From contig LVZN01000014.1 of NCBI GenBank assembly GCA_001695645.1, positions 1 through 32,000 on the forward strand: 32,000 bases of DNA. Reading direction: 5' to 3'. How positions within the stretch are numbered: the first letter of the stretch is position 1; the number at the start of each line of letters is the position of its first letter. Positions 3,341-24,424 of this stretch are shown here, in pieces. Under the pieces are notes generated by a model that searched no databases, was not told the origin of the DNA, and was given only the letters and a program-made list of their open reading frames with translations. The DNA is from Erysipelotrichaceae bacterium MTC7 (GTDB lineage: Bacteria > Bacillota_I > Bacilli_A > Erysipelotrichales > Erysipelotrichaceae). The translations under genes and the position numbers were made by a program.

Positions 3341-3997
3341 TTATCTCTCTGCTCCTTTGCTATGGTCTTTCTTATTTGACTTAGCTTTGTCACCTGTCTT
3401 AAAGCTTTTTATTTGCCCTAATATGGACTTTTTATCTTTATCTTGACTCTTTACTTGTTCTTTTGCTTTTAAGAGCTTAGAAGAGAAAATACGGACATTT
3501 TTATGCTCCTTTCCTTTGTTGTCAATGCTTGTTTTTACTTGTCCAAATATTTTAACAAAATCTCCTTGTTTTAGGTTTTCTAAATCTTTTGTCTTATCTC
3601 CATAAGCTGAACAATTGGTATAAATTTTATTCCCATCGTCATCTTTTGAAACAAGAGAAAAATTACTTACTTTAAATTTTTCTCCATTGGCATTTTCTCG
3701 TTCAAGATTTTCTATTTTGCCAGCTATATTACCCACGAGATTTATAAGGTCATCTTTTTCTTCAATATCACTGACATTTTCAACAATCTTACCTTGTTCT
3801 TTCATGTCATCAATCATATAGTCAAAGTCATCACTTAGTATACCTGTTGTGTCATTGTTCATATATAAAACATAGACTTCTTCAAGTGCTTTTTCATCAT
3901 TAACACCTTTTTCTATGCTTACAAGTGCTTTTATAAAGTCCTTGTAATTATCATTCATCATTTCTTCTAAGTTTTCTCTAATATCTTTGTATTCCAT
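3341..3997 (-). CDS. SSB-like OB-fold protein with a helical N-terminal extension and a basic C-terminal tail
   Basis: The C-terminal half (LINLVGNIAGKIE...FKVSNFSLVS...YTNCSAYGDK...GDFVKIFGQVK) is paralogous to the 104-aa OB-fold ORF at 25516..25830. RBS aaggagg lies upstream. The tail SILGQIKSFK...KGAER is shared with the giant protein. Confidence 0.7.
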   Translation of the reverse strand: MEYKDIRENLEEMMNDNYKDFIKALVSIEKGVNDEKALEEVYVLYMNNDTTGILSDDFDYMIDDMKEQGKIVENVSDIEEKDDLINLVGNIAGKIENLERENANGEKFKVSNFSLVSKDDDGNKIYTNCSAYGDKTKDLENLKQGDFVKIFGQVKTSIDNKGKEHKNVRIFSSKLLKAKEQVKSQDKDKKSILGQIKSFKTGDKAKSNKKDHSKGAER

Positions 3998-4040
3998 ATT
4001 TTCCTCCTTGTACTAAATAAGGAGAGCCTTTCGCCCTCCT

Positions 4041-7000
4041 TTATCGTTCTTGTCCTTTTTCACTTTTTTCTTGATTTTTATCTTTTTCTTCTTCAGATTT
4101 GAATTTTGATATTTGTCCCAATATTGATGGTTTCTCTTCCCTTGAGTGAAGATTATCCTCTACATCATAAGTTGATTCAAAGTAATCACTATCTTTAAAA
4201 TCATTGTCATACCTATCTGGTATTCCGTCATTATCAAGATCTTTTGCTAGTGGATCATAGAAGTTTCCATCATCATCTATTTCTAGTCCTAGAGCTTGTT
4301 TCAAATCTTCTTCATCTACTGATACCAGATCGTCAAAACTTGACATCTTTATGGCTTCAGTCATATCTTTAATAGCTTGTGAATTAGATATATCTTCTTC
4401 TACAAAAGATTCTGTTCTAATAGCTACATTATCTACATACTGAGTCCATGTTTTTTCTTCCAAATTTACCTCATATTGAATAGAGTGTTTACCATCTGGT
4501 GTTTCTGTATAGGCAAGTCCTATATGGCTTAAATCTGGGTATAATTTGTCAAAGTCTTCATAGCTATTAGATTCTGAAAACTCATAGTTAGAATAATCAA
4601 CTATCGCCCTCTTTAAATCTTCCAATAATGGTGATTGGTTTTCTAATTCTTCTACTTCTCCCATATCTAAAAGTTTATTAATCTCAGCTAATCTTAGTGT
4701 CTTATCCCTTAACTCATCTGCTTTTTCAAATCGTTTGGTCAATTCTACTTTGGCATTTTCTAAAGATTCTTTATAATTTTCAAGGTTTTGATTTAATCTT
4801 TCAAGTCTTGAAGGCATTTTTTCAATGGCATTATCAAGCCTTGTTATATTGCCATCAGTAGAGTTTGAAAACTCTCCAAAGTATTCTGCTTTTCCTAGGA
4901 GTTTAAAGGTGTGAGTGTTAGTCATAAAGTTATATGAAACTTGCAAGTCTAAATTTCTATATTTACCAATGACCTTGCTATCATTTATCTTTACTTTTTT
5001 TATTTCTTCTAATAATTTCTCTCCAGCTTCTTTCTTATCTAGAATTTTATTTTCTCTAAGACTGATTGAAGTGAATTTTATGTCTCCTTCTCCCAATTTC
5101 TCAATACTTGCAATATCTTCTTTAACTGCTTGTATTTCCATTTCAGTTTTTAAAATACTTTGAGGATAAATTTTATTTACCTTATCTTCAAGCTTATATT
5201 TATTAGACTTGTAGTTTGCTTCAAGCATTTTTAGTTTTGTAACTTCGTTATCTAAGTCCATCTTTTCTTTAATCAGAGGATTGCCTGTAGCTAAAGCTTT
5301 AATTTCTGAATAAGATAGACTTGCTTCATCAACATCTTCAGCAACACGCACAGGCGTCTTGCTTGTCATAATTTGAGATATGAATTTTTGCTTATTCTCT
5401 ATTGTCTGCCATAAATAGGCATCAAAGGTATTTTCTGTTACATATCTAAAGATATTTACCTTATCATTTTCATTACCTTGACGAACAATTCTACCACTTC
5501 TTTGCTCTAGGTCAGACGGTCTCCATGGGACGTCTAAATCGTGTAAAGCAATTAGTTTATTTTGTACATTTGTACCTGCTCCCATTTTTTGAGTAGAGCC
5601 TAATAATACTCTTACTTCTCCTCTTCTTACCTTAGAGAACAATTCATCTTTTTGTTTGTCTGTATCTGCTTCGTGAATAAAGGCTATTTCCTCTTTTGGT
5701 ATTCCCATATTCACTAGCTTATTTCTAATATCATCATAGATATTAAATTCTCCATCTCCTTTTGGTGTAGACATATCTGAAAAGACTAATTGAGTTGATG
5801 AATTTTCTTTTGTCTTATCCCAGATACTAAAGACGTTTTTAACGCATACATTTACCTTTGAATTAGGATCATCTGGAAGTAGTGGGTTTATTAATCTTTG
5901 GTCTAGGGCAAGTTTTTTACCATCATTTGTAATCTTTAGCATATTATCTTCTGTAGGCTCGACTTGGTTATTTCTAACCGCATCAGCTCTTTCTGAAATA
6001 GCTTCTAATATTTCTTTTTGTTCCTCAGTAGGTTTTGTTTTAATAACTTCAAAATTTGCTTCAGGAACTGGCAAATTTAACATATCTGAAGTCTTTATAT
6101 CTGCTACTTCTTTAAACATGCTCATCAGCTCTGGCAAGTTATAAAACTTTGAAAATCTTGTCTTTTGCCTATAACCAGTGCCTTCTGGAGATAATTCAAA
6201 GGTGTTTTCTGTTTCTCCAAAAGTAGAAGCCCAAGCGTCAAAATGTTCTAATCCTCTTGCCTTTAAATCGTCATACTGAAGGTATCTTTGCATGGTATAA
6301 AGCTCTGTCATTGAATTTGATATTGGTGTACCAGTAGCAAAAACAACTCCCTTGCCATCTGTCATTTCATCCATATACCTACATTTCATATACATATCCG
6401 AAGACTTAAAGGCTTCACTCTGACCGATACCCGCAACATTTCTCATCTTGGTATGCAAAAATAAGTTTTTGTAATTATGAGCTTCGTCTATAAATAACTT
6501 ATCTACTCCTAGTTCTTCAAAGGTTATTACGTCATCCTTTTTAAAGTCATCGTTTAACTTTTCCAGTCTTACCAAAAGCTTCTTCTTTGTCTTTTCTAGT
6601 TGTTTAACCGTGAAATTTTCCCCTCTATTTCTTTTATTCTCATCAATAAAGGAAACTATATCATCTATTTGGTCTTGTATATGTCTAACCTGGTATTCCT
6701 TAGACATTGGTATTTTTTCAAATTGAGAGTGTCCTATGATAACTGCGTCATATTCTCCCGTTGCAATCCTACCAATAAATCTTTTTCTGTTTTTTGGTTG
6801 AAAGTCTTTTTTATCGGCCACCATAATGTTTGCTGACGGATATAACTGCATAAACTCTCTACCAATTTGAGTGGTTAGATGGTTAGGAACTACAAATAAT
6901 GATTTACTTGCAAGTCCCAACTTTTTAGATTCCATAGCAGAAGCCACCATTTCAAAAGTTTTTCCTGCTCCTACTACATGGGCAAGCAGTGTATTTCCAC

Positions 7001-10000
7001 CATAAAGAGTCCTAGCTATTGCGTTTTTCTGATGTTCTCGAAGTCTGATTTCAGTATTCATTCCATCAAAAGTTAAGTTAGAACCATCAAATTCTCTATT
7101 TCTAATTGAATTGAATTTTTCATTATAAATTTTTTCTAGCCTATATCTTCTATCAGGATCTTCAAATATCCAATTCTTAAATTCTTCTTTAATCAGTTCT
7201 TGCTTTTGACTTGCTAGCATAGTTTCTTTTTTATTTAATACAGAAGTCTTAGACCCATCATCATTTATTACTTGGTCAAATACTTTTGTATCTTTTAAAT
7301 TAAGAGCGTTCTCAATTAGCTTATAGGCATTCACTCTACTTGTACCATAAGTCATGTTAGCAAGGTCATTAGTTGAGTCAACACTCTTACCTTCAATATT
7401 CCATTCACTTGTATGTGGTGAGAACCTAACATTTATATTCCACCTATCATAGCCTGGTGTTTTTAAAAGATTAAAAGTAAAGTCTTCTATATCTTTTTGA
7501 GGTATCCAGGTTGCTCCTAACCTTACATTTATATCAGAAGCAGTGAGTTCTTCAGGGATAACTTCTTGTAATTTCTCTCTTTGGTATTTGAGTTTTCCTA
7601 ACTCGTTTAATAATGTATCTTTCTTTTCAGAAGGTGCTAAATCAATTACATTTTCAATTTCTCCTATATATGAATTGAGGTAGCCAATCTTTTCTCTAAT
7701 ATTTCCACTTAAATACTCGTCAGCCGATACATATGAAAAATGAAACGGATCGTCATTGTCAAAGTTTTCAAATGGCATTCTGTTATTTATTAGGTCTGTG
7801 TCCTTAATATCTAAAAATATCTCGCCCTCAAGCTCACCAATTAAGGTGTCCCTATCTTTATTTGTGATAGATTCCATATATTCAAAATCTACATATCCTT
7901 TTTGTGAAACTGATAAGAGTAAGGCTTCAAGGGAAGTATCTACATGATCTACTACCTTTGCCTTTGTAATTGTTCTTTTTGAAAATATATCACTCTTAGC
8001 TTTAAAATTATCCTCATCATCAAGTATTTCTATTGATGATACCAAAGAAAAGTTTGAGTCTTCTTTTAAGGCTCTAGTGTTTGATAAGGAGTTAATAAAA
8101 CCATGTTTCTTTGAAAAGTTATCATAGACTTCATTTAACTTTGCTTGTGACTCTTTTATTTCTTCATCAGAGAAATCGTCCTTTTGCTTTTCTATTACAT
8201 CTTTTAAAGCACTCATTACATCAAGATAATCTTTTATCTTTTCTTTATTTTTATCTGATATATTCTGCTTGATTAAGACTGAGTTTTCTCTTAGATATAC
8301 ATCTTCGTCAATAATGGTATAGGAAAAGTTTTTAACATCATCTGTTGCTGGAAGACTTAATTCTTCATCTTCCAATAGCTCGACTTCTTCATATTTTGAA
8401 TTTGAAGATATTTCCTTGCTTGCAAGATCCATTAAATCTTTTAATTTTTCATCTTCTTTTTCATCACAAGTAATAGTATTGCCAAATCTTCCAGATACTT
8501 CTTTCATATCCCCTAATACCATTTGAGGATTATCTACAAAGTATTTATTATAGGTCAAACCCTTTTTATCAGTTGCTAGGTGTATCCAATCGTCATCTCT
8601 TTCTATAACTGAATCTCTCTTTTTTAGAAAAATAATATCTGAAGTAACTTCTGTACCAGCAAGTCCTTTAAATGTTGTATTAGGAAGCCTCATAGCTCCT
8701 AAAAACTCACATCTTGCATTAATATATTTTCTAACAGATTCATCTTTTTTATCCATAGTTCCAGATGAAGTTATGAAGGCAATAATTCCTCCATTCCTAA
8801 CCTTATCTATTGACTTTGCAAAAAAATAATCGTGAATCAGAAAGTTATTTCTGTTATATTCACGATCGTTAACTTTAAAATCTCCAAAGGGAACATTTCC
8901 TATTACCAAGTCAAAGAAATTATTTGAGAAGTTTGTTTCTTCAAAGCCTTTAATTTGAATATTAGCTTCAGGATAAAGTTCTCTTGCTATTCTTCCGCTT
9001 AGACTATCTTTTTCTACTCCATAGACTTTAGAGCCTTGTATTTCACTTGGCATATTACCAATGAAATTACCGACTCCTGCAGATGGTTCAAGGATGTTCC
9101 CAGTCTTAAAACCCATATCTGTTAGGGTCTTATATATTCCATCCATTACCTCTCTAGGTGTATAAAATGATGTTAAAGTAGACTCTTTAGCATTCAAATA
9201 CTCTTCATTTGTTAGGTTTTCTTTTAAAATATTTCTTGCTTCAAGCCATTGTCCTCCCTTTTCTTCATCGAAGACATCGGCAAGACCTCCCCAACCTAGA
9301 TAATCAGCAAGATAGGCTTGTTCATACTCTCTTGGACTCCTATTTTCATTTTCAAGTCTTTTTAGCATTTTAATAGCTTTTATATTTTTATCTAGTCTTT
9401 CTGATGGTGTAAGGTATTCTGAGTAGATATGATTTTTCAAGTCATAATTTCTAGCAAAACTTAGCCTTTCCTTATTAGGTTCATAGCCTAGATTTTTTAA
9501 ATCTTCTTTTCCCCTCAATAAGTTTTCGGCTGAATCTCTTGGAACATCGTACCTATCCATCATTTGGTCAATTTCAGGATTGAACTTATCAATAAAGCTT
9601 TCTTGTTCTACTTGTCTTTCAATTTGATTTTCATGGTCAGATAATTTGTATATCTCATAGTTTCCACTATCTAAAAGGTCATCAATCTTTCTACTTTCTT
9701 CAAATGTTGCACCCTTATATAAAGGATATTCTTTCTCATTAACTTCTACCTTAGTTCCTGTTTCAATTAAGTTAATTCCATTAAATGTATTTTCATCTTC
9801 TAAAATAAATTCATTTCCAACCTTTACTGCTAGTTTTTCTGATGTTTGACTTAGATTTTCAAAGATTTCTTCAAGGTATGAATCGTTTCTATATGGAATT
9901 ACTTCCGAACCCCTAATCATACCTCCCATATATTCCATATTGTCTCTGATAGTGACAGTTTTAAGTCCTCCACTTAGTTCATCAAAATTTGTAATGGTAA

Positions 10001-11684
10001 AGTCCTTATCTTTATATCTAACCTGATCACCTATCTTAAATTTAGGTTCTATCTTTTCCTTAACTTCTTCTTGTAATGATTTTTCCTCACTTAGTGCAAC
10101 TTGCTCTTCTAAATATGAAAATTCACGCTCATTTACTTCTTCACCATCACCAAGGTCAATCCTATAATGCTCGACAACTTCATCGTCTACATAGTGGTCA
10201 AAATAGAATTTGAAATACCCGATATAGTCATCAGTCATTTCTCCAAATTCATTTTCTCCAAGAGTTTGATTATGGTCTTTAACATCAATATCCTTTTGTC
10301 TTAGGATATTGATTAAGTCTTTAGTTACTATCTGCCCACTATAATCGGGAACTAATTCGTGATTTTCATTAAATTCTACAATCCAGTAATCTTTTCTATT
10401 TTCAGTGCTTTTGCCATCAAAAAAAGAAGCTTCATCAGCTTCCTTTTCTTGACTTATTTCATTTTTTAAGCTTCCACGTATTCCTTGATTGCCATCTTCT
10501 TCACTGTTGCCATCAAGTTGTTCATCTGTCCTTGGTATTCCTCTGGATCCTCTCTCATCATCTTCTCTGTCAATCCTTGTGCTTTCATCATCTTGACTTT
10601 CTCTCTCTTGATAAAGTCCACTGCCTGATTCTGAATTTCCTTCAGGTGGTTCAAAAGTGTTTTCTCCTCGTACATTTTCTGAAGTTTCTTCCAGTTCTCC
10701 ATGTCCTCGCTCCCTACTAGGTAAGACAGTCTTAGAACTGCGTATGTCGGATTCGGATATCTCTCCATAAATTCCAGATCCTTCTCCATCATGTCCAAGA
10801 TTTTCTCTTCGATCTTCATCGCTATTTCCTCTGTCGCTTCCATCTGTGAAAACTCGTCTATCTCTACTTCTTGACCTATCATCTCGTCTATATAAATCAT
10901 CTTGACCTCCTCTATCTTCATTTATATTTTCTATATCTCTATTATAATCGCCACCGGCCCTTTCTGTCAGCAGCCTAGCACGATCTATTTCCTTAGATTT
11001 TTCTATTGTGCTATCTATAATATCTTCGCTAACCCTTGATATTACAAGACCTATCTGCTCTAAAGAAATTGTATTAATCCTAGAAAAATTATTTTTTAAA
11101 TTTTCCATATCCATAGGATAGACTGTATTAAACCTATTAGCTACCGCATAGGATATTGAGTCTCTCATAAACTTTTCAAAGCTAAGTCTATCCTCTATAT
11201 CTATCCTCAAATCAGCAAGAGCCAAGTTAATGTATTCATCTCCATAAATTCGACTCAAAGAAAATATATTTTCGTTTAGTGAATCACTCGCTTCAAATGA
11301 AAAATCTCTTATTATTTCTTTTAAAGCCTCCTTATGGTTTTCGTGGTCAAACTGCCATAAACTAACCTCATTAATATTCCTATCCATTGATGTGGTCTGA
11401 CTAACATCAAAAATATATGAAATTTTTTGATTTATATCACTTCCAACTAAAATTGGAATACCCCTTTGACCTCTCATAACAACTCGACCAAAATATTTCT
11501 TCCACATATCAAAAGTTGCACAAGCTCTAGCTTTAGGTTCTTTGTTGTATATACTTAGCTGGCTAGAAAAATCATATTTCTGATTATTGCCTATAACCTT
11601 TAAGAGTTTTAAATATTCTTTTTCATCTTGTAAAACTTCATACTTTATTGCTTCTTGTATATTCTTAAAATCATTTACTTGCAT
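4041..11684 (-). CDS. Polyvalent 2547-aa protein: ArdC-N-like domain, low-complexity linker, N6-adenine MTase, SNF2/DEAD-like helicase, C-terminal tail (phage P1 DarB-like architecture)
   Basis: N-terminus [24 protein letters not shown] is ArdC-N-like. MTase motif [12 protein letters not shown] (~nt 9064-9095) and motif [10 protein letters not shown] (~nt 8878-8903). Helicase motif [13 protein letters not shown] (~6961-6990), motif [12 protein letters not shown] (~6481-6495), motif [13 protein letters not shown] (~5481-5510). The start overlaps the upstream MTase stop by 14 nt. Confidence 0.9.
10466..10900 (-). CDS. Candidate nested alternate-frame gene, TnpV-like small protein (144 aa from ATG 10900; 151 aa from ATG 10921)
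   Basis: Open frame offset from the host ORF and bounded by TAA on both sides. GGAGG lies 5 nt upstream of the ATG at 10900. G-ending codon usage differs from the flanks. The C-terminal pattern [38 protein letters not shown] is recalled as TnpV-like. Not verified by search. Confidence 0.4.
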
Positions 11685-15432: not shown

Positions 15433-16030
15433 CCTCAGAAATTTTCCTTATTACTTCATATATCCATGCTGGCACTGATTTTGACTCGTTCATTAAGTCT
15501 ATTCTTTCTTTTTCACTTAAATTTTCTCTTATCTTTTGTATAACTTCATTAGTTATATTTTCTTTTCCCAAAGACTTAATTGCTTGAATAACTGTCGCTG
15601 TCTTCAAAGACATATTGGCAATTTCTCCTGGATTTACTTTTTTAAATTCTAAAACTGTATCCCCAATTTTATATTCTTTATATCTTCCACTAGATATATA
15701 TTTATAGTGAGTTGGAACTTGTGTTGAAAGTCCTAATAAGTTTAAGGCTGTGCTACTATATGGTGCAATATTCCAATTATATTTTCTTGCTATGGCAAGT
15801 GCTAACTCGTGAATCGATACTGCTTCGTACTCTCCAATTAATTCACTATATCTTGGATTGTAATAAAATCCATAAATGACACGCTTAATTTTATCTTCAT
15901 CTGCTAATCTTTTTAATATTTGTCTAACCGTAGCATTAGATGCAACATCTAAAAAGTCATTTGCAAAAAATACTTTATGCGAGTCAAAGCTATTTATTTT
16001 ATCTGATATTATTTCCATATATGAACTCAT
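15419..16030 (-). CDS. abiEi: AbiEi-like antitoxin / transcriptional regulator
   Basis: 203 aa encoded directly upstream of, and overlapping, the NTase gene. N-terminal wHTH-like segment NATVRQILKRLADEDKIKRVIYGFYYNP. RBS aaaggag. Confidence 0.65.
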   Translation of the reverse strand: MSSYMEIISDKINSFDSHKVFFANDFLDVASNATVRQILKRLADEDKIKRVIYGFYYNPRYSELIGEYEAVSIHELALAIARKYNWNIAPYSSTALNLLGLSTQVPTHYKYISSGRYKEYKIGDTVLEFKKVNPGEIANMSLKTATVIQAIKSLGKENITNEVIQKIRENLSEKERIDLMNESKSVPAWIYEVIRKISEGENE

Positions 16031-16042
16031 TACAATTCTCCT

Positions 16043-16082
16043 TTGTCACGGATATTGTATCATATTCGTGACAACAATTCAA
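16043..16082 (-). promoter_or_regulatory. Sigma-70-type promoter with an overlapping inverted-repeat operator for abiEi-abiEii
   Basis: On the minus strand: -35 TTGAAT (16077-16082), a 17-nt spacer, -10 TACAAT (16054-16059). A perfect 8-bp inverted repeat TTGTCACG-N16-CGTGACAA (16043-16050 / 16067-16074) spans the -10. Confidence 0.7.
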
Positions 16083-16103
16083 TTGTACTTAAATTTAATA
16101 TTC

Positions 16104-16973
16104 TTATAATAGTTCATCATCTTCATCGTCATCATCTAAAGATTCTTCATGACTTTCTTCATTGTCTGACTCATCTTCTGACTCACTAATATAATCCTCA
16201 TCATCTTCTTCAAAGTCTTCCAACATTTTATCTTCCTTAGCTTTGACTACCTTAAAATAATATCCTGCTCCTACAACTCCTCCAATTACAAGTGCAACAA
16301 TTAGAAATGAACCTATCCCGCTTTTCTTTTCTTCTTTTACTGGAACAGTCTTAGGCTCTTCTTTTTTTACTTCTTCTTTCTTAGGTTCTTCAACCTTTAT
16401 AGTATTTTTATCTTCTGACTCAATCATATTAAGTAGGTCTTGCTCTCCTACCTCTGTCAATAGCCTTACATTATCTTGGTTTGATGAGTGATCCACTATT
16501 AGGTGCATAGTTTTTCCACTTTTAGTTTGAAATGTTAAAAATTGTCTTACATCTACTGGATTTTCTTTATCTTTTTCTGTATCTCCACTTGGTGTAATGT
16601 CTTTTCCATTCCTATCTACATTTTCAATTACTGAACCTCTTGCCTTATTTTCCCCAGTCGCAAGATTATTTACTGCCTTTGTATTACCACCTTTTAAAAG
16701 TGGTACTTTCTTAGGAGAATTATTTGAAGGCTTATTTGCTTCACTTGTATTTCCTGGTATTCTTGGAACATCTTGATAAGGAATCTCTTCTTTTGACGGT
16801 GTAAAAACATCATCTTTCAACATTTTTTCAAATTCTTCTTTTTGTGGTTCATAGATTGATTCATTTTGACTTTCTATTTGATCTTCATTTGTCATCGCAA
16901 ATGTAGTTGCTGGTACTGTAAATGTAAAGAGGAGTAACGCTATGGCTACTCCTCGTTTAATGCTCTTATTCAT
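16104..16973 (-). CDS. Secreted, membrane-anchored transfer protein, DUF4366 / CD1107-like
   Basis: Signal peptide MNKSIKRGVAIALLLFTFTVPATTFA. Conserved-looking core FLTFQTKSGKTMHLIVDH. C-terminal TM IGSFLIVALVIGGVVGAGYY plus an acidic tail. Confidence 0.65.
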   Translation of the reverse strand: MNKSIKRGVAIALLLFTFTVPATTFAMTNEDQIESQNESIYEPQKEEFEKMLKDDVFTPSKEEIPYQDVPRIPGNTSEANKPSNNSPKKVPLLKGGNTKAVNNLATGENKARGSVIENVDRNGKDITPSGDTEKDKENPVDVRQFLTFQTKSGKTMHLIVDHSSNQDNVRLLTEVGEQDLLNMIESEDKNTIKVEEPKKEEVKKEEPKTVPVKEEKKSGIGSFLIVALVIGGVVGAGYYFKVVKAKEDKMLEDFEEDDEDYISESEDESDNEESHEESLDDDDEDDELL

Positions 16974-16987
16974 TTTTATATCCTTTC

Positions 16988-18571
16988 TTATTTTACATTT
17001 TTAAATACATAGACTGCTTTTCTAGTATTGTCCCATTCTATTGTTTGGTTTTTACCATCTTTAATATCCCCATGGCTTGCTCCAAAAGCTTTGGCAATAT
17101 TTGAAATTGAAGCATGAATTCTTCCATTTATAATCACTGGCTTAACATCTGAATTGTAGACCTTTCCATCTGAATCTTTCATAACACCAGTATCAATATT
17201 TAGTCTTAATGTCTTTTTAGCTAAGATATTATTCTCTTTATTTGAGAAAATAGCTTCACGAGTAGAGTTGTCATACTCAACATTAAAACCTAGAGTATAA
17301 GCAATATATCTTACTGGAATCATAGTTCTTCCTTGATCTACATAAGTTTTTACATCCATATATACTGTTGTCTTACCATCTTTGTTAATAATGTTATAGA
17401 AGTTTTTGTCTACTTGAAAAACTGCAAATTCTTTTTCATCTTTAACTTGTTTTTTGTCTTGTTGTTCCTCTTGCTTTTTCATCTTGTTAAGATCAAATTG
17501 ATTTAGGATGTTCTTATCATCAGCTTTCAAAAGTTCGTCCCACTTCTTATCTTGAGATTTCTTATCTTCTTTCTTTTCTTTGTTTTCTTTTTGGAGTTTT
17601 AGAAGTTCATCTAATTTTTTAGATAAGTCTTGATTTAGATTTTTATCTTTTTCATCTTTAGCTTGTTTCTCAAGTTCTTCTTTCGATTTTTTATTTGCTT
17701 CCTCGATTAACTTCTTTACTTCTTCAATTTTCTTATCTAACTCTTTTTTTAGCTTTTTAATTTCTTCTTCAGAAGCTTTTTGTTTTTCTTCTAGTTCTTT
17801 AATTTTCTCTTCTAATTCTTTTTTTGTATTTTCAGAAGATTCTTTTAAACTATCAATATCCTTTTGAAGCTCTTCAATTTTCTTAAAGCATTCTGACTTA
17901 GAATTTTCTGTCTCTTTCTTTTTAGACTCTAAGTCTTTTATCTTAGTATCTTTTTCATCAAGAGCTTTTTCTAAGTCCTTAATTCTATTGTCTTTATCCT
18001 CAATTTCTTTAGTCTTCTTTGCAAGTTCTCCTTCTAAAGATTCAAGCTTTTCTTGCATTTCTTTGATTTTATTTTCGTTTTTATCGGTCTTTTCTTTCTC
18101 AGCTTCTAACTCCCATTTTGTAGATGAATAATCTTCTTTTAATTTTTCATTTTCATCTTGTAATCTTTTTAATTCATCTTTAAGCTGAGTAATTTCTGCT
18201 ATTAGTTCATCATTATTAGAGTTTTTAAGATCCTCAATTTCTTTATTCAGTTGAGCAATCTTATTATCTTTATTTCTAATCTCTTCTTCTAGCTTAGCTT
18301 TTTCTTGTTTTAGTTTCTCTCCATTATCTTTGCAAGATTCTAACTTTTCCTTTAATTCATCTATCTTTGATTGGTCTTCTTGTTTCTTATCATTTAAGTC
18401 TTTGATCTGATTTTCTAAATCACTAATTTTGCTTATTGAACTTTCTATAACTTTTTTACTACCATCTGTATCATCAGCTTTAGCTAGTACATTAGTAGTT
18501 GAGGTTGATGTTAAAACTAATAAAAGAGCCATAAAAAAGGCTCTTAGTCTTTTCGTGTTAAATTTCTTCAT
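16988..18571 (-). CDS. Secreted coiled-coil protein with a C-terminal copper-amine-oxidase-N-like (stalk) domain
   Basis: Signal peptide, ~330 aa of E/K-rich heptad sequence, and a C-terminal MIPVRYIAYTLGFNVEYDNSTREAIF motif. Confidence 0.7.
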   Translation of the reverse strand: MKKFNTKRLRAFFMALLLVLTSTSTTNVLAKADDTDGSKKVIESSISKISDLENQIKDLNDKKQEDQSKIDELKEKLESCKDNGEKLKQEKAKLEEEIRNKDNKIAQLNKEIEDLKNSNNDELIAEITQLKDELKRLQDENEKLKEDYSSTKWELEAEKEKTDKNENKIKEMQEKLESLEGELAKKTKEIEDKDNRIKDLEKALDEKDTKIKDLESKKKETENSKSECFKKIEELQKDIDSLKESSENTKKELEEKIKELEEKQKASEEEIKKLKKELDKKIEEVKKLIEEANKKSKEELEKQAKDEKDKNLNQDLSKKLDELLKLQKENKEKKEDKKSQDKKWDELLKADDKNILNQFDLNKMKKQEEQQDKKQVKDEKEFAVFQVDKNFYNIINKDGKTTVYMDVKTYVDQGRTMIPVRYIAYTLGFNVEYDNSTREAIFSNKENNILAKKTLRLNIDTGVMKDSDGKVYNSDVKPVIINGRIHASISNIAKAFGASHGDIKDGKNQTIEWDNTRKAVYVFKNVK

Positions 18572-18797
18572 TATGAATATTCTCCTTTTCTTTTAATTTT
18601 TCTTCTCTTTTTCTATCATTGATTTTCTCCATTAATTCTTCCAAGCTAATATTGTTCCTCCTAAGAGTTACAATTATTTCTTCATTTTCAACTTGTATTT
18701 CTTCATCGCAAATTTCCTTGTATTTTGCATTTAAATCTTTTAATTTCTCTTCTATTTTTTTCTTTTTGTTCCTAATACTTGTAAGTTTTCTGTTCAC
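18558..18797 (-). CDS. Small coiled-coil protein, DUF4315-like
   Basis: The track ORF 18558..18851 was trimmed to the GTG at 18797, which is preceded by agaagggag. This removes the overlap with the P60 gene. Sequence KIEEKLKDLNAKYKEICDEEIQVENEEIIVTLRRNNISLEEL. Confidence 0.55.
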   Translation of the reverse strand: MNRKLTSIRNKKKKIEEKLKDLNAKYKEICDEEIQVENEEIIVTLRRNNISLEELMEKINDRKREEKLKEKENIHNEEI

Positions 18798-18811
18798 ATA
18801 ATATCTCCCTT

Positions 18812-21391
18812 CTATCTTGGTCTTCCAAAACCATAAAAGTGTGATTTCCAATATTTTGAATTTATTGATGTGTATTGAATTGGATCTCCTGCGTGAATCA
18901 TCATTCCGTTACCTGCGTATATTCCCACGTGAGATATTGGTGTTCCACTGTTATATGTTGAGTGGAAAAATATAATATCTCCAGGCTGAGCTTCACTTGG
19001 ACTTACTGGATTGCAATAGTCTTTGTATATTCTCCATGCAGTTGTTCTTGGCATTCTCTTTACTCCAGACTTAGTAAATGACCAACATACAAAACCTGAA
19101 CAGTCAAAGTTAGATGGTCCACTTGCTCCAAACACATATCTTTTGCCTATATGTTTTTCTGCTTCATTAAATAAGGCTTTGGCAGTAGCTGAATCAAAAG
19201 CAAGACCAGGATTTCCAAAGTTTGGATTATCTACTATTTCTCCTAAATCCCCATTACCTGATCCAAAAACATCACCCATATTCCCCTTAGCTTCAAGAAG
19301 AGCTTCATAATGAACTACATTGTCTGGATAATCTTTAAATATTTCCCTAACAACTTCATCCATTTCTTTTTTCTTTAAAGTTACAATTAACTTTTTATAT
19401 TCGTACTCTTCCTTTTCATAGCTAGTATAAGGATTTCCACGACTATCATATCTAGTTCTTGCTACTGTTCTTGTTCTAATTTCAATTTCTTCCTTAAAGT
19501 CAAGCTTATACATCTTGTCGAAAAGTTCTTTTAAAATTCCTTTTACTTCAGATGCTGATTTTACTTCTCCACATCTTGAAGTTATATAGGATAAAAGTTC
19601 GTGGGTATTATGACCAATTTCTCCTTCTTTGTTTATGATATATTCGTCATATCCAGGATGACTTGTTTTTACACTTTCGATTTGTGATTGTAGGTCATAT
19701 TCCATTGATGAAAATTCTTGATTTACTTCACTTAGAACTGTGTCTTGTGATAGGTATGTTGTTGTCATTACTGAGTTAACAGAGTTACTTAATCCACTCA
19801 TACCAACACTTCCACCACCAATCATGATTGATAGCATAAGACCTAGCCCTATTACTAGAAATAGAACCATCTTGCTTTTTCTTACTATTAGCTCTTTAGA
19901 AGCCTTACCTAAACTTAAAATAGCTTTTTTAACTCTATCTACAAGTCTTGTTTCGTGCTTTTTAGCTATAATGCTCTTCATTTGTTTTCTCTGGTAAAAC
20001 TTCTTAAATCTATTTTTCTTTATATAGGCATCTGACTTTTTTAAATCTTCCAAGCCACTTTTAAACTCCAACTTGCTTTTTCTCTTTTTTATTTTCTTAT
20101 CAAGTTTAGATAGCTTTTTTAAGGACTTTTTCTTTTTGTCTAACTTATACTTCCTTATTCCATGCTGGAGTTTAGAGCTTACATTAGCGACCTTCTCTCC
20201 AGATTCTACACCAGTATTGTCCGATCCTGAACTTAGATAATCTCTCACTAACTCTGCTGACTTAGCTCCAGATAATAAAACCCCAGAAGATAGACTTCCT
20301 TTAGTTTTATTCTTTAAGATATTATCCTTTAACTTGCTTTTAGACTTTTCAAGCTCTCCAATCTTTTTATCTGAGATAAAATCTTTAACATCTTGTGCCT
20401 TCTTAGAATCTTTCGTTGTAACTTTCTTAGATTCATTTTTTAAGTCATCGATTTTCTTTCGAGTAAATTTATCACTTTCATAATTTTTTCTTTTGTAGTA
20501 AGTCTTCTTTTTATTAACTTTCTTTTGTTCTGAAGGTTTAAGACTTGTTTCCTTTTCATCTTTTATAAATTCTTGATTATTTTCTTTAACCTTCGAATTA
20601 TCAAAAGTTTTATCTGCATCAACTTCGTTTAGCTTATTTTCTTTATCTATCTCTTTAGAAATTTTTTCCTTATCTCTAAAATTCTTTTCTTGATAAAGTT
20701 TCTGCTTTTGCTTTTTATCGATATTAGCATTACTCTCATTATTGCTTACTTCATCTTTAACAAGCTTATCTTTTTTATATACTCTCTTGCTTTTCCTTGC
20801 TTCGATAGGTTTATCTTCGCTTGTGTGGATTCTCTTAGACTCTCTCTCGTTGATTTTGTCTTGGAATTTATCCTTACTATGGATAAGTTTATTCTCGTAA
20901 TTTTTGAGAACTTGTCTTTTACTTGATGGCTTCTTATTGCTTATTACTTCAGAGTTCGCTGAAATATCATCTGTTGTTAGTTTATCAGGATTAATATTTC
21001 TACTATTTTCACTATCAAAATTTACTTTTTTGAAGTCTACATCTAAGTCTTCATCAAGTTTAAAGCTTTCATCTGTCCTTATTTCAAGATTAGCTTGTTT
21101 TATTTCTCCAGCCTTATCCTTATTATCTAAAACTTCTTTTCTGATTCTTTCCTTGTTTTTAGCCTTCTGAAAATCTTTTAGTTTATCTTGTTTTTGATCT
21201 TTAGCTAATACATTCTCATGGATAAGTTTAGATTCTTTTTCTGAAATTTTATCTCCGAACCTATCCTTAGTCTTAATTATCTTATTGGTATAATCATCTG
21301 AATGAACAAGTTTACTTTCAAGATTCTTTTCAGGAGAGTCCCTATTTCGTATAATTTTCTTTTGAAAATCTTTTTTTAGTTTTTTATCCAT
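18812..21391 (-). CDS. Transfer-associated cell-wall hydrolase: K-rich N-terminus, TM, CD1108-like region, C-terminal NlpC/P60 domain
   Basis: TM MVLFLVIGLGLMLSIMIGG. NlpC/P60 catalytic Cys in NFDCSGFVCWSF and His in HVGIYAGNGMMIHAG. Confidence 0.88.
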   Translation of the reverse strand: MDKKLKKDFQKKIIRNRDSPEKNLESKLVHSDDYTNKIIKTKDRFGDKISEKESKLIHENVLAKDQKQDKLKDFQKAKNKERIRKEVLDNKDKAGEIKQANLEIRTDESFKLDEDLDVDFKKVNFDSENSRNINPDKLTTDDISANSEVISNKKPSSKRQVLKNYENKLIHSKDKFQDKINERESKRIHTSEDKPIEARKSKRVYKKDKLVKDEVSNNESNANIDKKQKQKLYQEKNFRDKEKISKEIDKENKLNEVDADKTFDNSKVKENNQEFIKDEKETSLKPSEQKKVNKKKTYYKRKNYESDKFTRKKIDDLKNESKKVTTKDSKKAQDVKDFISDKKIGELEKSKSKLKDNILKNKTKGSLSSGVLLSGAKSAELVRDYLSSGSDNTGVESGEKVANVSSKLQHGIRKYKLDKKKKSLKKLSKLDKKIKKRKSKLEFKSGLEDLKKSDAYIKKNRFKKFYQRKQMKSIIAKKHETRLVDRVKKAILSLGKASKELIVRKSKMVLFLVIGLGLMLSIMIGGGSVGMSGLSNSVNSVMTTTYLSQDTVLSEVNQEFSSMEYDLQSQIESVKTSHPGYDEYIINKEGEIGHNTHELLSYITSRCGEVKSASEVKGILKELFDKMYKLDFKEEIEIRTRTVARTRYDSRGNPYTSYEKEEYEYKKLIVTLKKKEMDEVVREIFKDYPDNVVHYEALLEAKGNMGDVFGSGNGDLGEIVDNPNFGNPGLAFDSATAKALFNEAEKHIGKRYVFGASGPSNFDCSGFVCWSFTKSGVKRMPRTTAWRIYKDYCNPVSPSEAQPGDIIFFHSTYNSGTPISHVGIYAGNGMMIHAGDPIQYTSINSKYWKSHFYGFGRPR

Positions 21392-21398
21392 ATCACAC

Positions 21399-23822
21399 CT
21401 ACTTAGCTTCTTCTGGTTTTGTTGTCATCAGCTTATATAACATGGTGTCTTTAGGGAATTTATCAATAAAGGGAACAATAGTATTTCCAAAGAATAGTAA
21501 TCCCTCACCTGCATTTGAATTAGTAATATAGTTTAACTGATAAGGCGATATTTTTAATTTCTTAGCAAGAATATCTCTATCTCCAGATGCTTGATTTAAC
21601 ATTAGAACAAAGTCTGTATTATCAAAGATATTTTCAATTTCCTGACTTGTTAAAAGGTCTTTTACGTTTTGAGTTATACCTGTTGGAATACCACCCCATT
21701 TTCTAAATCTTTTCCAGATTTCTACTGAATATGAAGCAGTTTGTGGATCTTTTAATAAAAGGTGGAACTCATCTATATAGTATCTTGTAGACTTGCTTCC
21801 TCTATTAAGGGAAACCTTATTCCAAACCTGGTCTTGAATTACAAGCATACCTATTTTTTTAAGTTGTGTTCCTAGTTCTTTTATATCAAAACAAAGCAGT
21901 TGCCTATTTAGGTCAACATTTGACCTATTATTAAAGACATTAAGACTTCCCTTAACATAAATTTCCATTTCTGTTGCTAGTTTCCTACCAACTCCCTCTT
22001 CTTGAGATAGGAGCATTTCGTATAAATCTCCTAATATAGGCATATTTTCTGGTTTTGGGTCTTCAAAATATTTTTGGTATATCTTTGGCAAGCACCTATC
22101 TATAACAGATTTTTCTGCAGCAGTTAGACCAGATCCTCCAACCACAAGTTCAAGCATAGACATTATGAAGTTTGCCTTATCCTTTAAAGGTGCGTCCCCA
22201 TCTCCATAGTTCATATTAATATCTAGTGGATTTAGGTAGTCCTTTGACTTTGCCGAAACTTTAATAACTTCTCCATTAAATTGTTTTACAAGGTTTGAAT
22301 ACTCGCCTTCAGGATCACAAATAATTACATCATCGTCTGTTACAAGAATTGCATTTGCCATTTCTCTCTTTGCTGAGAAAGATTTACCAGAACCTGGTGT
22401 TCCTAATATTAGTCCGTTAGGGTTCTTAAGTTTCTTCCTATCTGCCATAATCAAGTTTTGGCTAAGGGCGTTTAATCCATAGTACAAAGAATTTGCCGAA
22501 TCAATAAATAGCTCTTCTGTTGTAAAAGGCATAAATACTGCCGTTGATGATGAAGTTAAAAATCTTTTTATTTCGACTTGATTAACTCCTAGAGGTAAGA
22601 CAGAAACAAGTCCTTGCTCTTGTTGGTGAGATAATCTTTTTACCTGACAATTATGTCTATTTGCAATTGATGATATTTGAGCAATAGTATTTTCTAATTT
22701 TTGATTAGTCCTTGCAAAATTCATCATTACTATGGATACTACAAAGAGCCTTTCATCTCTATTTTGTAAGTCAGATAACATGGACTTAACATCAGCCCCA
22801 AAAGTATTTATATCTGATGGAATAATATCCATATCATATCCAGCACGAACTGCTTTCTTTTGTTCTTCGATTTTCATTCTATCCAGGTCTGTGTTTTTTC
22901 TCTTAATGAGTTTAATGGCTTCTGCTTGTTCAACTACATCTATATGAAAAGCTACATAAATATTGTCATCAATATCTAAAAACTCAGATAACATTCTGTC
23001 TGATATCTCACTTGCAAGTATTTGAAAATGACTTACTGCTCCAATGAATTTCCCAAATTTAAAATTATTTGCTGGTGCAAAATTAAAGATATTGGGAGTT
23101 ATATGTGATTTTGTAGACTCTTTCTTCTTCAAATCTTTATATGAAAAATCAAAGCTCTTGTCGGGATTTAACATATCGTGAACAAGTCTTAGTCTTTCTT
23201 CGCCATCAAGGCTCTCTGCTCTTACTCCCATAGATTTAAAGTTAGATAAAATATCTACTTCAAGTCTATTTAACTTTGCTCTTGCTTGTTCTAGGTTATC
23301 GGCTTCTGTTGTAAAGGTTATATACTTCATCTTTTTAAGTCCGTTATTGCCCTTTGCAAGTTGAAGCTTTAGCATCTCCCTAAACTCTTTTCTTACATCG
23401 TCATAGAAATCTCCCTTATCAGCAATTTTAATTGCATCTTGTAAGTCCTTATTTCTTCCTAATTGATTTACATACGAAAGTTCAATATGGACACTTGGAT
23501 CGAAAGAATTTAAAAAGTTGGCAAATTGGTTAAAGATTAAATCTCTATCTTCTTCCAATGCCAACTGGTAATTTATATCTTGAAATGAAATTGTCTTTGA
23601 ATAATTTTTTTCATCTAACTGGCAAATGCCCTCTGGTAATATTCTTATATAAGGAATTGTATCCTCAACTGTAAATCTCTTTTTCTCTTTCTTTAAAAGT
23701 ACACTTAGAAGACTATTTGTTGGATCTTTCTTTGTTTTTAGCCTTCTTACTTCCTTTCGGTCTTTTTTTAATTGTTTTTCCCTTAGATTTAAGTCGCTGA
23801 TTTGCTTTTTTCTTTGCTTCAA
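21399..23822 (-). CDS. VirB4-like conjugal transfer ATPase (CD1110-like)
   Basis: Walker A GTPGSGKSF and Walker B YYIDEFH. TTG start at 23822 with a strong SD aaaggagg 6 nt upstream. Conserved N-terminal RFTVEDTIPY. Confidence 0.9.
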   Translation of the reverse strand: MKQRKKQISDLNLREKQLKKDRKEVRRLKTKKDPTNSLLSVLLKKEKKRFTVEDTIPYIRILPEGICQLDEKNYSKTISFQDINYQLALEEDRDLIFNQFANFLNSFDPSVHIELSYVNQLGRNKDLQDAIKIADKGDFYDDVRKEFREMLKLQLAKGNNGLKKMKYITFTTEADNLEQARAKLNRLEVDILSNFKSMGVRAESLDGEERLRLVHDMLNPDKSFDFSYKDLKKKESTKSHITPNIFNFAPANNFKFGKFIGAVSHFQILASEISDRMLSEFLDIDDNIYVAFHIDVVEQAEAIKLIKRKNTDLDRMKIEEQKKAVRAGYDMDIIPSDINTFGADVKSMLSDLQNRDERLFVVSIVMMNFARTNQKLENTIAQISSIANRHNCQVKRLSHQQEQGLVSVLPLGVNQVEIKRFLTSSSTAVFMPFTTEELFIDSANSLYYGLNALSQNLIMADRKKLKNPNGLILGTPGSGKSFSAKREMANAILVTDDDVIICDPEGEYSNLVKQFNGEVIKVSAKSKDYLNPLDINMNYGDGDAPLKDKANFIMSMLELVVGGSGLTAAEKSVIDRCLPKIYQKYFEDPKPENMPILGDLYEMLLSQEEGVGRKLATEMEIYVKGSLNVFNNRSNVDLNRQLLCFDIKELGTQLKKIGMLVIQDQVWNKVSLNRGSKSTRYYIDEFHLLLKDPQTASYSVEIWKRFRKWGGIPTGITQNVKDLLTSQEIENIFDNTDFVLMLNQASGDRDILAKKLKISPYQLNYITNSNAGEGLLFFGNTIVPFIDKFPKDTMLYKLMTTKPEEAK

Positions 23823-24123
23823 GGTATTCCTCCTTTCTTATTCTCTTAGTTGGTTGATAAAACTTGTGAAGATAGAAAAATTTAAAATATTTTTCAAAAG
23901 TTAAGGTGTCTTTTTCATATAAGGTTATAAAAAAGATTGGCAGGGTTACTATTAGCATTACAATGATTGAAACATCATTAGGTAGATATTTCTTCATAAA
24001 TAAATAGGTTGGTATGCCAATTAGTCCTGCCACAGAAAAACCTATAAGTTGTCTTTTCGTTAAGTTAAAGGCAACTTTTGTTTTTATCTTGTCCAAATCT
24101 TTTGGTATTGGTACATATGCCAT
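23713..24123 (-). CDS. PrgI/TcpE-like two-TM transfer protein
   Basis: MAYVPIPKDLDKIKTKVAFNLTKRQLIGF followed by two TM spans. The K-rich tail overlaps the VirB4 start by 110 nt. Confidence 0.7.
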   Translation of the reverse strand: MAYVPIPKDLDKIKTKVAFNLTKRQLIGFSVAGLIGIPTYLFMKKYLPNDVSIIVMLIVTLPIFFITLYEKDTLTFEKYFKFFYLHKFYQPTKRIRKEEYLEAKKKANQRLKSKGKTIKKRPKGSKKAKNKERSNK

Positions 24124-24124
24124 T

Positions 24125-24415
24125 TTAATCTCCCTCTACTTCTTCTTTGGAAAGTTCAAGTATATGGTCATAATTTGATGTTGTTTCTTCTTCTAGGTAG
24201 CTAATTCTTTCTTCTAATTCTTCTTGTTTTTCTTCATTTTTGTCATTGTATTCTCCTTGATACATAACAAATTCATTGTGACATCTTCCGAGTCTATTTA
24301 TTCTCCTCTTTAAGTTTCTAATCTCTTCATTTCTTTTCTTCTCTTTTAAGATTTCATAAGTTCCTCCCAATAAAATTCCAAGTCCCAATAAAGCACAATT
24401 TTTCTTTTTTAACAT
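24125..24415 (-). CDS. Small membrane-anchored coiled-coil protein, unknown function
   Basis: From the ORF track. N-terminal hydrophobic CALLGLGILLGG followed by a charged helix. Tightly packed between the VirB6-like and PrgI-like genes. Confidence 0.55.
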   Translation of the reverse strand: MLKKKNCALLGLGILLGGTYEILKEKKRNEEIRNLKRRINRLGRCHNEFVMYQGEYNDKNEEKQEELEERISYLEEETTSNYDHILELSKEEVEGD

Positions 24416-24424
24416 TTATTCCTC

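Follow-up and report, generated by a model that had tools for sequence, protein, structure and literature searches.

A peptide of ~30 residues at the C-terminus of otherwise unrelated proteins is a strong candidate for an address label that brings proteins of conjugative and mobilizable elements to the DNA-transfer machine. It is seen at the ends of two neighbouring genes, one encoding an SSB-like protein and the other a polyvalent methylase/helicase, in a 32,000 nt stretch of DNA from Erysipelotrichaceae bacterium MTC7 (hereafter ‘the window’, which denotes the whole stretch). The same tail ends five unrelated protein families, namely SSB-like proteins, polyvalent proteins, MobQ (MobA/MobL) relaxases, PcfB/DUF3801 proteins and PF03432 relaxases. 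As judged from comparison of these sequences, it may be a modular C-terminal address peptide, acting as a docking or translocation signal for the coupling protein (T4CP) of the element, a reading to which we give somewhat better than an even chance.

Two adjacent genes with a common C-terminal tail

The SSB-like gene (3341..3997, minus strand) encodes a protein of 218 aa with an N-terminal helical domain (residues ~3–67), an SSB-type OB fold (residues ~84–177; 3467–3748, minus strand) and the tail. The OB fold is assigned from the AF2 model and Foldseek comparison. The mean pLDDT of the model is 67, with ~80 in the OB region; residues 192–200 form a short low-confidence helix, and residues 200–218 have pLDDT values <50 and are without secondary structure. 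C-terminal T4SS signals are usually disordered. Foldseek ranks bacterial SSBs first, with target-normalised TM-scores of 0.6–0.8 (5odn_E, E = 3e-8), and the OB region shares 40% identity with the small SSB of the same element. PF00436 does not match the window protein at E ≤ 0.01; some homologues with 63–65% identity have a precomputed PF00436 hit. The protein ends in ...HSKGAER, and the tail replaces the usual acidic SSB tip of the D-D-D-I-P-F type.

The neighbouring gene (4041..11684, minus strand), located 7–10 kb downstream of the T4SS genes, encodes a polyvalent protein of 2547 aa that comprises a methylase, a helicase, a coiled coil, a 12-residue motif and the tail. Pfam matches cover an Eco57I domain (N6-adenine methylase) at residues 912–988 and ResIII/SNF2/Helicase_C domains at residues 1546–2070. 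The N-terminal region weakly resembles an ArdC-type ssDNA-binding domain, aligning with the ArdC-like part of PcfD from pCF10 at E = 0.006 in a pairwise comparison, and has no Pfam ArdC-N match. The mass of this anti-restriction-type enzyme is 295 kDa.

The C-terminus of the SSB-like protein reads ...DKKSILGQIKSFKTGDKAKSNKKDHSKGAER in translation. Its tail (residues 188–218; 3344..3436, minus strand) consists of the patch D-K-K-S-I-L-G-Q-I-K-S-F-K and 18 charged residues ending in K-G-A-E-R-COOH, while that of the polyvalent protein (residues 2517–2547; 4044..4136, minus strand) consists of a 13-residue patch and 18 charged residues ending in K-G-Q-E-R-COOH. An earlier, sequence-only reading of this DNA had described the two tails as the same end motif at equal C-terminal distance, with SILGQI-xx-FK followed by exactly 18 residues up to K-G-x-E-R. 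Translation confirms both points, the Ser of SILGQI being located 28 residues from the C-terminus in each protein. That reading had also held that the tail DNA is not obviously identical and the motif confined to these two ORFs, and both statements stand. Only 53 of the 93 nt coding for the tails are identical (57%), and 7 of the 14 identical residues are specified by different synonymous codons. Thus, the tails are alike at the protein level and do not reflect a recent DNA duplication. In a six-frame scan of the window, SILGQI occurs in no ORF besides these two, and the relaxed motif near the C-terminus is found in none of the other real ORFs.

A T4SS operon block lies upstream of both tailed genes (15517..25956, minus strand). 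According to Pfam matches, it encodes a VirB4-like protein (21399–23822, minus strand), a small SSB that retains its acidic end (25516–25830, minus strand), as well as Maff2, a VirB6-like protein, PrgI, an NlpC/P60 hydrolase and a CD1107-like protein, all on the minus strand. An AbiEi gene (DUF6088; 15419–16030, minus strand) reaches slightly beyond the low end of the block and is followed by AbiEii, topoisomerase III and Dcm (11671–15432). The tail motif is present neither in the proteins of the T4SS block, from AbiEi to the small SSB, nor in AbiEii, topoisomerase III and Dcm. At the DNA level the block shares 96% identity with the related locus L015, and homology stops at window position 25956. 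The element copy is truncated at about this position, and for this reason the T4CP is missing from the window.

Distribution and conservation of the tail

In related elements the tail module corresponds to [ED]-K-x-S-[IV]-[IL]-x-x-[IL]-x-x-[FY]-[KQ], followed by 18–32 charged residues with a usual E-R end, replaced by E-L in another allele. Among 3,302 ORFs from 76 related loci, the motif occurs 148 times, and 140 occurrences, in the SSB-like and polyvalent families, are found exactly 28 or 29 residues before the stop, a fixed distance that excludes chance. A relaxed motif, searched in 6,912 ORFs (1.07 M residues), gives 294 matches, with 270 of them at 28–45 residues from the stop; 254 tail-zone matches belong to four families. 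In the two families of the window pair the Ser lies 28 or 29 residues from the end, compared with 32–39 in MobQ relaxases (24 in one) and 31–42 in PcfB.

The tail is kept in all intact SSB-like homologues, with identities down to 56%, and S191, L193, I196, K214, E217 and R218 are invariant across 24 of them (63–94% identity). It is likewise present in all polyvalent homologues recovered; related loci yielded 26 different polyvalent tails, each with a terminal R and with S-I-L-x-x-I-x-x-[FY]-[KQ] located 28 or 29 residues before the C-terminus. All full-length MobQ relaxases recovered (41 distinct C-termini, 50–97% identity) end with GEK[EP]S[IV]I..[IL]K.[FY][QK]...[QE]ER. The gene for PcfB/DUF3801, another carrier of the tail, either adjoins the T4CP gene or directly follows the MobQ relaxase gene. 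The Pfam DUF3801 model extends into the PcfB tail, and apart from the C-terminal end of this model, Pfam, NCBIfam and PDB sequence searches revealed no family covering the tail.

Conservation extends to residues outside the search pattern. In the four profiled families a Lys occupies position −2 (26/26, 56/57, 19/19 and 41/41) and an acidic residue is most often found at −3. The tails of these families end in E-R, with the exception of most PcfB tails. The distal part of the tail is rich in Lys and Glu, with 50–65% charged residues, and its mean net charge goes from −2.0 in polyvalent proteins to +1.5 in MobQ relaxases, +1.8 in SSB-like proteins and +6.1 in PcfB.

An exhaustive search with the tail profile in 1.84 billion representative proteins gave 106 matches. 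No recognisable housekeeping protein is found among those inspected, which are all fragments or deletion chimeras of element proteins; the search is sensitive to near-identical tails only, so that exclusivity holds for the present allele family. Matches to a profile of the tail alone are all fragments of ≤73 aa and are taken as leads only. A candidate third family, in which a coiled coil would precede the tail (P0128, P0143, P0201, P0242 and P0326), was resolved otherwise: some members are variants of the SSB-like protein into which a coiled coil is inserted (L011), and the others are remnants or deletion chimeras, such as P0242, where the N-terminus of a C40 hydrolase is joined to the tail.

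Collectively, the motif and profile scan of related elements turns out in favour of the sequence-only reading and reaches further than it predicted, to relaxases and PcfB. The tail persists in homologues of both window proteins, and all carriers found are encoded by conjugative or mobilizable elements. Neither absence from homologues nor equal occurrence on non-mobile cytoplasmic proteins, the two sequence-level grounds for rejecting that reading, was observed. The motif could not be recognised in more remote plasmids that encode CD1115-type T4CPs, namely p732-a of E. faecalis, p75 of B. mycoides and pCF10, where charged tails and hints of other common motifs are all that is seen; this counts against the docking or translocation reading.

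Relaxases of mobilizable elements and exchange of the distal tail

The fifth family comprises PF03432 relaxases encoded in small guaA-linked integrative mobilizable elements (IMEs), which have no T4SS genes within 10 kb on either side. Their C-termini conform to KKESVIG.IKK[FHY][KQ]...E[RL] in 114 of 120 cases, with the Ser at 26–29 residues from the end. Of the six relaxases without the standard tail, one has a variant form of the motif, and the other five have suffered a frameshift or truncation. Position −2 is occupied by Lys (102/114) or Arg (12/114). The tail is therefore found on relaxases of two unrelated families, including mobilizable-element relaxases that depend on a foreign T4SS. 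The relaxase is the one obligate substrate of the T4SS.

In the L007/L094 pair, the tails of the IME relaxase and the SSB-like protein share 27 of 32 residues, 12 of these 27 being specified by different codons. The tail is under purifying selection at the protein level, since the peptide is retained through many synonymous changes. The distal half behaves differently from the rest of the IME relaxases. While the bodies of these relaxases are 89–93% identical, identity in the distal 19 residues goes from 17/19 down to 2/19, with ER-type versus DMEL-type alleles. Thus, the distal tail half swaps between IME relaxase genes like a cassette.

Within-element co-variation of tails was considered as support for a common receptor and was dropped. 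It gives no signal for the polyvalent and SSB-like tails, and a weak one for the MobQ and PcfB tails, based on 13 non-independent pairs, with 5 of 5,000 shuffles reaching the observed value.

Possible functions of the tail

The sequence-only reading had interpreted the tail as a T4SS tag. This idea is strengthened by the occurrence of the tail on homologues, on mobile-element proteins and on relaxases of two families, but the identical spacing seen in the window is not general. It is tempting to propose that the T4CP is the common partner of the tailed proteins. The tailed relaxase would be piloted through the channel, and the SSB-like protein and the anti-restriction-type enzyme would be delivered with or alongside the single strand, coating and protecting the DNA in the recipient. 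Mobilizable elements would copy the tail onto their own relaxase, which may then be accepted by the T4CP of the helper element. The hydrophobic patch of the tail is probably a Ser-capped helix. The choice of the T4CP as candidate receptor is a guess; PcfB, the relaxosome, VirB4 or a host protein could take this role instead. The spacing, which varies from 24 to 42 residues between families, counts against the docking or translocation reading, as do the inconsistent net charge of the distal part and the weakness of the co-variation between tails.

A more elaborate version can be offered tentatively, as a possibility well short of an even chance. The label would be in two parts, with the proximal K-x-S-[IV]-[IL]-x-x-I-x-x-[FY]-[KQ] conferring general affinity for the Gram-positive T4CP class and the hypervariable distal half (E-R versus D-M-E-L) determining which element's T4CP accepts the protein. 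A mobilizable element could then switch helper by swapping the last ~19 relaxase codons, and the set of tailed proteins would represent the complete co-transferred ‘conjutome’.

The comparative evidence points to a common partner, not to export, and would be the same if the tail were an assembly tag operating in the donor only. In that case it would tether the relaxase, PcfB, the SSB-like protein and the methylase/helicase to a hub, either the T4CP or a relaxosome component; the outgoing strand would be acted upon, for example coated or methylated, before leaving, and only the relaxase, or no accessory protein, would enter the recipient. The location of the PcfB gene beside that of the T4CP, or just after that of the MobQ relaxase, is as expected of a docking or relaxosome partner. 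Moreover, a polyvalent protein of 2547 aa is an awkward cargo for a channel needing unfolded substrates, which counts against the export reading. Yet transfer of SSBs and anti-restriction-type enzymes is known from other conjugative systems (PMC8406263; ArdC and TraC1, cited in PMC5512222), and methylation of donor ssDNA would need no tail common to foreign IME relaxases. Confinement of the tail's role to the donor is rather unlikely, but deserves to be taken seriously.

Far less probable is a membrane-targeting role, in which an amphipathic helix and a charged tail would keep the proteins close to the T4SS at the cytoplasmic membrane, with no specific protein receptor. Hydrophobic positions 2, 3, 6 and 9 could share one face of a helix, AF2 predicts a short helix there, and some tails are strongly basic (mean net charge +6 in PcfB). 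The hydrophobic moment is, however, ordinary (0.32–0.65, values reached by 9–43% of shuffles in five of seven tails), which leaves the idea of an amphipathic helix or membrane anchor unsupported, and the polyvalent tails are net acidic with an acidic flank. An invariant Ser, a Lys at −2 and an E-R or E-L end speak for specific recognition, while cassette-like ER and DMEL alleles would be senseless for plain lipid binding.

A degradation or turnover tag, by which a common protease adaptor would keep the conjugation proteins short-lived, is hardly credible either. A tail that is C-terminal, disordered and common to co-regulated proteins would suit such a tag, but known C-terminal degrons, such as ssrA, have non-polar ends and the tail does not resemble them; its copying onto helper-dependent IME relaxases and its swapping between them are unexpected for a degron. 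Least probable, and largely refuted by the codon analysis, is the absence of any common function, with the likeness due to recombination between neighbouring genes, to gene conversion or to a conserved DNA/RNA element overlapping the gene ends: recombination in or near tails does occur, as seen in the many database deletion chimeras that join other N-termini to the tail, but synonymous change is abundant (7/14 in the window pair, 12/27 in L007/L094, with window tail DNA 57% identical) and five families, encoded on different elements, all have the motif in frame and at the C-terminus.

Relation to known transfer signals

The address-peptide reading recalls the C-terminal VirB/VirD4 translocation signal of Agrobacterium, reportedly defined by Vergunst and colleagues in 2000 and 2005 on VirE2, VirF, VirD2, VirE3 and VirD5. 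This signal is also short, unstructured, C-terminal and common to a relaxase, an ssDNA-binding protein and other transferred proteins, and it is read by the coupling protein. In contrast, it is Arg-rich and net positive without a fixed hydrophobic motif, whereas the present tail has a defined patch, a Lys/Glu spacer that can carry a net negative charge and a conserved E-R or E-L end. Of the features that characterize VirB/VirD4-type signals, the tail shows the extreme C-terminal location, the sharing by relaxase and accessory proteins and the disordered, hydrophilic nature, but not the Arg-rich net-positive consensus. The tail is neither Arg-rich nor consistently basic, in contrast to the classical Gram-negative signals.

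The acidic tip of bacterial SSBs (SSB-Ct, ...D-D-D-I-P-F) recruits partners and offers a parallel in architecture, in that a conserved docking peptide at the terminus follows an OB fold and a flexible linker. The tail differs from it in sequence and charge and is common to relaxases and further element proteins. Legionella Dot/Icm substrates carry degenerate C-terminal or E-block signals that are read by adaptor complexes. In T4SS effectors of Xanthomonas and Stenotrophomonas, the XVIPCD is a folded domain of ~120 residues found on toxins (PMC8740702). Both are C-terminal modules on unrelated T4SS substrates, bound by VirD4 or a coupling complex, but, unlike the tail, they have no link to conjugative DNA-processing proteins.

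In conjugative systems, the F-like pED208 T4SS delivers SSB, PsiB, ParA and other proteins to recipients (PMC8406263; conjutome in PMC11288057). The likeness would concern delivery of a plasmid SSB and establishment proteins through the conjugative T4SS. To our knowledge, no common sequence tag is defined for the pED208 substrates, whereas the present sequences reveal a discrete peptide that can be transplanted. The F/R1 relaxase TraI contains internal translocation signals, TSA and TSB (PMC3912908), which are also relaxase elements mediating recognition for transfer, but are folded internal domains of ~300 residues; the present tail is a terminal peptide also found on non-relaxases.

Polyvalent proteins of conjugative elements have been predicted to be delivered with DNA (Iyer et al. 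2017, PMC5512222), and a term search of this paper gave no mention of a common C-terminal tail or delivery signal. The 2547 aa protein has the defining combination of several enzymatic or anti-defence domains in one ORF beside a T4SS. It resembles both these proteins and phage P1 DarB in pairing a methylase with an SNF2 helicase; DarB, however, is packaged in the capsid and not sent via a T4SS. The literature searched yielded no description of a consensus substrate signal for Gram-positive conjugation, nor of the present tail.

Implications for Gram-positive conjugation

Substrate selection by Gram-positive conjugation machines is largely unexplained, and experimental evidence on this choice is limited according to a 2025 review (PMC12857230). 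If the tail is an address peptide, a signal readable from sequence on two relaxase MOB families and three accessory families would provide a handle for binding and translocation assays. Proteins travelling with the DNA would become predictable from sequence, including an ssDNA binder and a 295 kDa anti-restriction-type enzyme. It would likewise become possible to predict which conjugative elements move which mobilizable elements, many of them with defence systems, in human-associated anaerobes and streptococci. The tail may also serve as a portable tag for protein delivery between Gram-positive bacteria. Finally, it would give a first functional clue for PcfB/DUF3801, which is conserved beside the coupling protein gene.

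Distribution of the C-terminal tail

The main new finding, on sequence evidence, is that the C-terminal tail of ∼30 residues extends beyond the SSB-like and polyvalent proteins of the window. In plasmid pAPRE01 of Anaerococcus prevotii it ends the MobQ relaxase (...GEKESIIKKIKEYKQDSDNFNKKRQMTKDYYKNQER), one PcfB/DUF3801 protein (...KDSITKTINKFKD...KEQSL) and a second PcfB (...KESILKQIKKYKD...MTREI), the latter frameshifted in pAPRE01 and intact in the related locus L034. With the MobQ relaxase as query, a metagenome scan gave 80 loci. All full-length MobQ proteins recovered there (41 distinct C-termini, 50–97% identity) end in the tail, and the adjoining PcfB proteins are likewise tailed. In one locus (L136, 7523–7810), a 95-aa ORF directly 3′ of the MobQ relaxase gene has a tail-like end (…KKSIKAEIERYKKMEQREKNRPKARTKEDIKMEKER) and may represent a further tailed family.

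Small ORFs found in the tail search led to a second relaxase family, PF03432, unrelated to MobQ, whose gene is split in some loci by a frameshift just 5′ of the tail. In L007–L010 (∼9900–10160), a one-base frameshift in an A/T-rich run leaves a 400-aa ORF and a 51-aa tail ORF. This split recurs on many contigs and could reflect a pseudogene, a sequencing artefact or a switch between tail-less and tailed forms. With the frameshift-repaired relaxase as query, 114 of 120 relatives (478–486 aa) carry the tail in frame, its Ser 26–29 residues from the end; the termini are E-R in 82 and E-L in 28. These relaxases lie on small integrative mobilizable elements (IMEs) that sit next to guaA and also carry an integrase, NikA-like and AAA_25 proteins and defence cargo; no T4SS genes occur within 10 kb of them in the guaA-linked IMEs. 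The IMEs share a backbone with varied cargo (restriction–modification, Dnd/BREX-like genes, a kinase–helicase; L182–L185 and proteins P0329–P0448). Most of the difference between their relaxases falls in the final ∼19 residues (ER versus DMEL alleles), and some records are assigned to Fusobacterium, Seminibacterium or Haemophilus.

The tail on the SSB-like and polyvalent proteins

Translation confirms the C-termini of both window proteins exactly as quoted in the sequence-only reading: each contains SILGQI-xx-FK, with Ser 28 residues from the end, followed by 18 residues of which K-G-x-E-R are the last, and a scan of the window ORFs finds the motif in no other. The DNA encoding the two tails matches at 53 of 93 nt, with half of the identical residues differing in codon. 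The SSB-like assignment of the 218-aa protein also stands, since the AlphaFold2 model (helical N-domain plus OB fold), the Foldseek matches (for the OB fold, bacterial SSBs rank first) and the paralogy to a small SSB of the same element agree. The two OB folds are 40% identical (25516–25830 versus 3533–3751), and the small SSB ends in acidic residues in place of the tail. In the model, the tail of the 218-aa protein forms a short, low-confidence helix over ILGQIKSFK and then a disordered end.

Six positions (S191, L193, I196, K214, E217 and R218) are invariant among 24 aligned SSB-like homologues of 63–94% identity. The strict motif has 148 matches in 3302 ORFs from 76 genomic loci, 140 of them exactly 28 or 29 residues before the stop (80 SSB-like, 60 polyvalent). 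Distant polyvalent proteins vary in residues and keep pattern and distance (e.g. SILGQIRAYQ...YAR, SILKQIKSYQ...DER).

Some SSB-like proteins have a coiled-coil insert of ∼45 residues (…DKSQEIAKLKSEIEEREKDLFYADSWEQSGQIRADIEKMKAKL…) between OB fold and tail (L011 6187–7006, a frameshifted copy; database protein P0255). Shortly upstream of the polyvalent tail lies a DLDNDG[IVT]PDR.D motif (residues ∼2485–2510; window 4150–4230), also present in ArdC/metallopeptidase-like or small proteins of Enterococcus faecalis p732-a and Bacillus mycoides p75 (L013 25743–27182; L014 5091–5597); the p75 protein ends in ...HDMEL.

Position, selection and exchange

In the pooled loci (6912 ORFs, 1.07 million residues), the relaxed motif has 294 matches, 270 of them 28–45 residues from the stop; four families account for 254 of these tail-zone matches (SSB-like 84, MobQ 70, polyvalent 64, PcfB 36). 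Outside the search pattern, Lys at −2 shows no or almost no variation and −3 is mostly acidic in all four; a basic residue at −2 is also kept in the IME relaxases. The E-R terminus is common to the profiled families, most PcfB tails excepted. Between the tail of an IME relaxase and that of an SSB-like protein, 27 of 32 residues are identical and 12 of the 27 are encoded by different codons, so the peptide itself is under selection. On relaxase bodies of 89–93% identity, distal tail halves range from 17/19 down to 2/19 identical (ER-type versus DMEL-type), and the tail thus behaves like a cassette that can be exchanged.

A profile search run exhaustively over 1.84 billion representative proteins returned only 106 matches; each of those inspected is a fragment or a deletion chimera of a protein from these elements. 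Many short database proteins (P0123, P0128, P0242, P0278, P0290) join the SSB-like tail to the N-terminus of PcfB, DUF3847 or a C40 hydrolase, or to a polyvalent tail; deletions that end in or beside the tails thus seem to be frequent in decaying elements.

The element in the window

The window (GC ∼30%) contains one long operon, entirely on the minus strand from ∼25956 down to 3341; it belongs to a Tn1549/CTn5-type conjugative element of Gram-positive bacteria, with its genes assigned by Pfam matches. The T4SS operon opens with the small SSB (104 aa, acidic C-terminus, 25516–25830). Maff2, a VirB6/TrbL-like protein and PrgI lead to the VirB4-like ATPase (21399–23822), followed by an NlpC/P60 hydrolase and a CD1107-like protein, an AbiEi/AbiEii pair (DUF6088 and nucleotidyltransferase, 14443–16030), topoisomerase III and a Dcm methylase, the 2547-aa polyvalent protein (Eco57I-type methylase and SNF2/ResIII helicase, 4041–11684) and, last, the SSB-like protein (3341–3997). 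AbiEi/AbiEii, a toxin–antitoxin pair, is thus embedded in the transfer operon; the CD1107-like and topoisomerase III genes flank it, and pAPRE01 keeps the pair as well.

The element region is 94% identical in DNA to pAPRE01, and it recurs almost unchanged in many Peptoniphilaceae as well as in Streptococcus, Peptococcus and other bacteria. In pAPRE01 (L001 16560–26544), a group II intron (ltrA reverse transcriptase/maturase) splits the polyvalent gene, which is annotated as two ORFs. The match to intact relatives breaks off at 25956, and their upstream module (RepA_N, IstB-like, PcfB, Ant and a VirD4-type coupling protein) is absent from the window; this copy looks truncated or rearranged. The flank (25957–32000) encodes an HxlR/RrpA-type regulator, a PNPOx-like protein, a pyroglutamyl-peptidase fragment, an IS3 transposase, a sigma/anti-sigma pair and a generic APH-family kinase scoring far below resistance-gene cut-offs. 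Downstream of the tailed genes (66–3095) lie a lactococcin-972-type bacteriocin export ABC ATPase and a DUF1430/bacteriocin-associated membrane protein; cargo at this position differs in other copies.

A candidate transfer signal

The transfer apparatus is the only obvious common factor of two relaxase families, PcfB, an SSB-like protein and an anti-restriction-type enzyme, and one of the relaxase families (PF03432) resides on elements that have to borrow a foreign T4SS. As the coupling protein of the T4SS (T4CP) has to recognise the relaxase, the most economical reading is that the tail is a common docking peptide for the T4CP. Among other readings, a membrane anchor gains no support from the hydrophobic moment, and a DNA-level or gene-conversion origin is contradicted by the codon data.

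If the tail docks at the T4CP, the SSB-like and polyvalent proteins may in turn be exported. VirE2 of Agrobacterium provides an analogy for such export. SSB, PsiB and other proteins of F-like plasmids provide another (PMC8406263). Four points speak against a simple analogy: the tail here is Lys/Glu-rich and can be net acidic; its spacing varies from family to family, so that the identical spacing seen in the window pair does not hold as a general property; co-variation of tails within one element is weak or absent; and plasmids that are more distant but have a T4CP of the same family show no recognisable motif. In pCF10 (L179; genes at 3857–4342 and 6222–8381), PcfB (...TFDERLAY...) and the ArdC-like PcfD (...KFEERLLN...) have F-[DE]-E-R-L in common, 30–41 residues from their C-termini; this may be pCF10's own version of the tail or a coincidence.

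No description of the tail was found in the literature searched, and a term search of the polyvalent-protein paper (PMC5512222) turned up neither a shared tail nor a delivery signal. PcfB/DUF3801 is ‘not defined’ in PMC12084326, and a 2025 review describes the evidence for how Gram-positive systems recognise their substrates as limited (PMC12857230). C-terminal T4SS signals are already known as a kind; what is new is a candidate signal with a defined consensus, exchanged like a cassette, on conjugative and mobilizable elements of Gram-positive bacteria.
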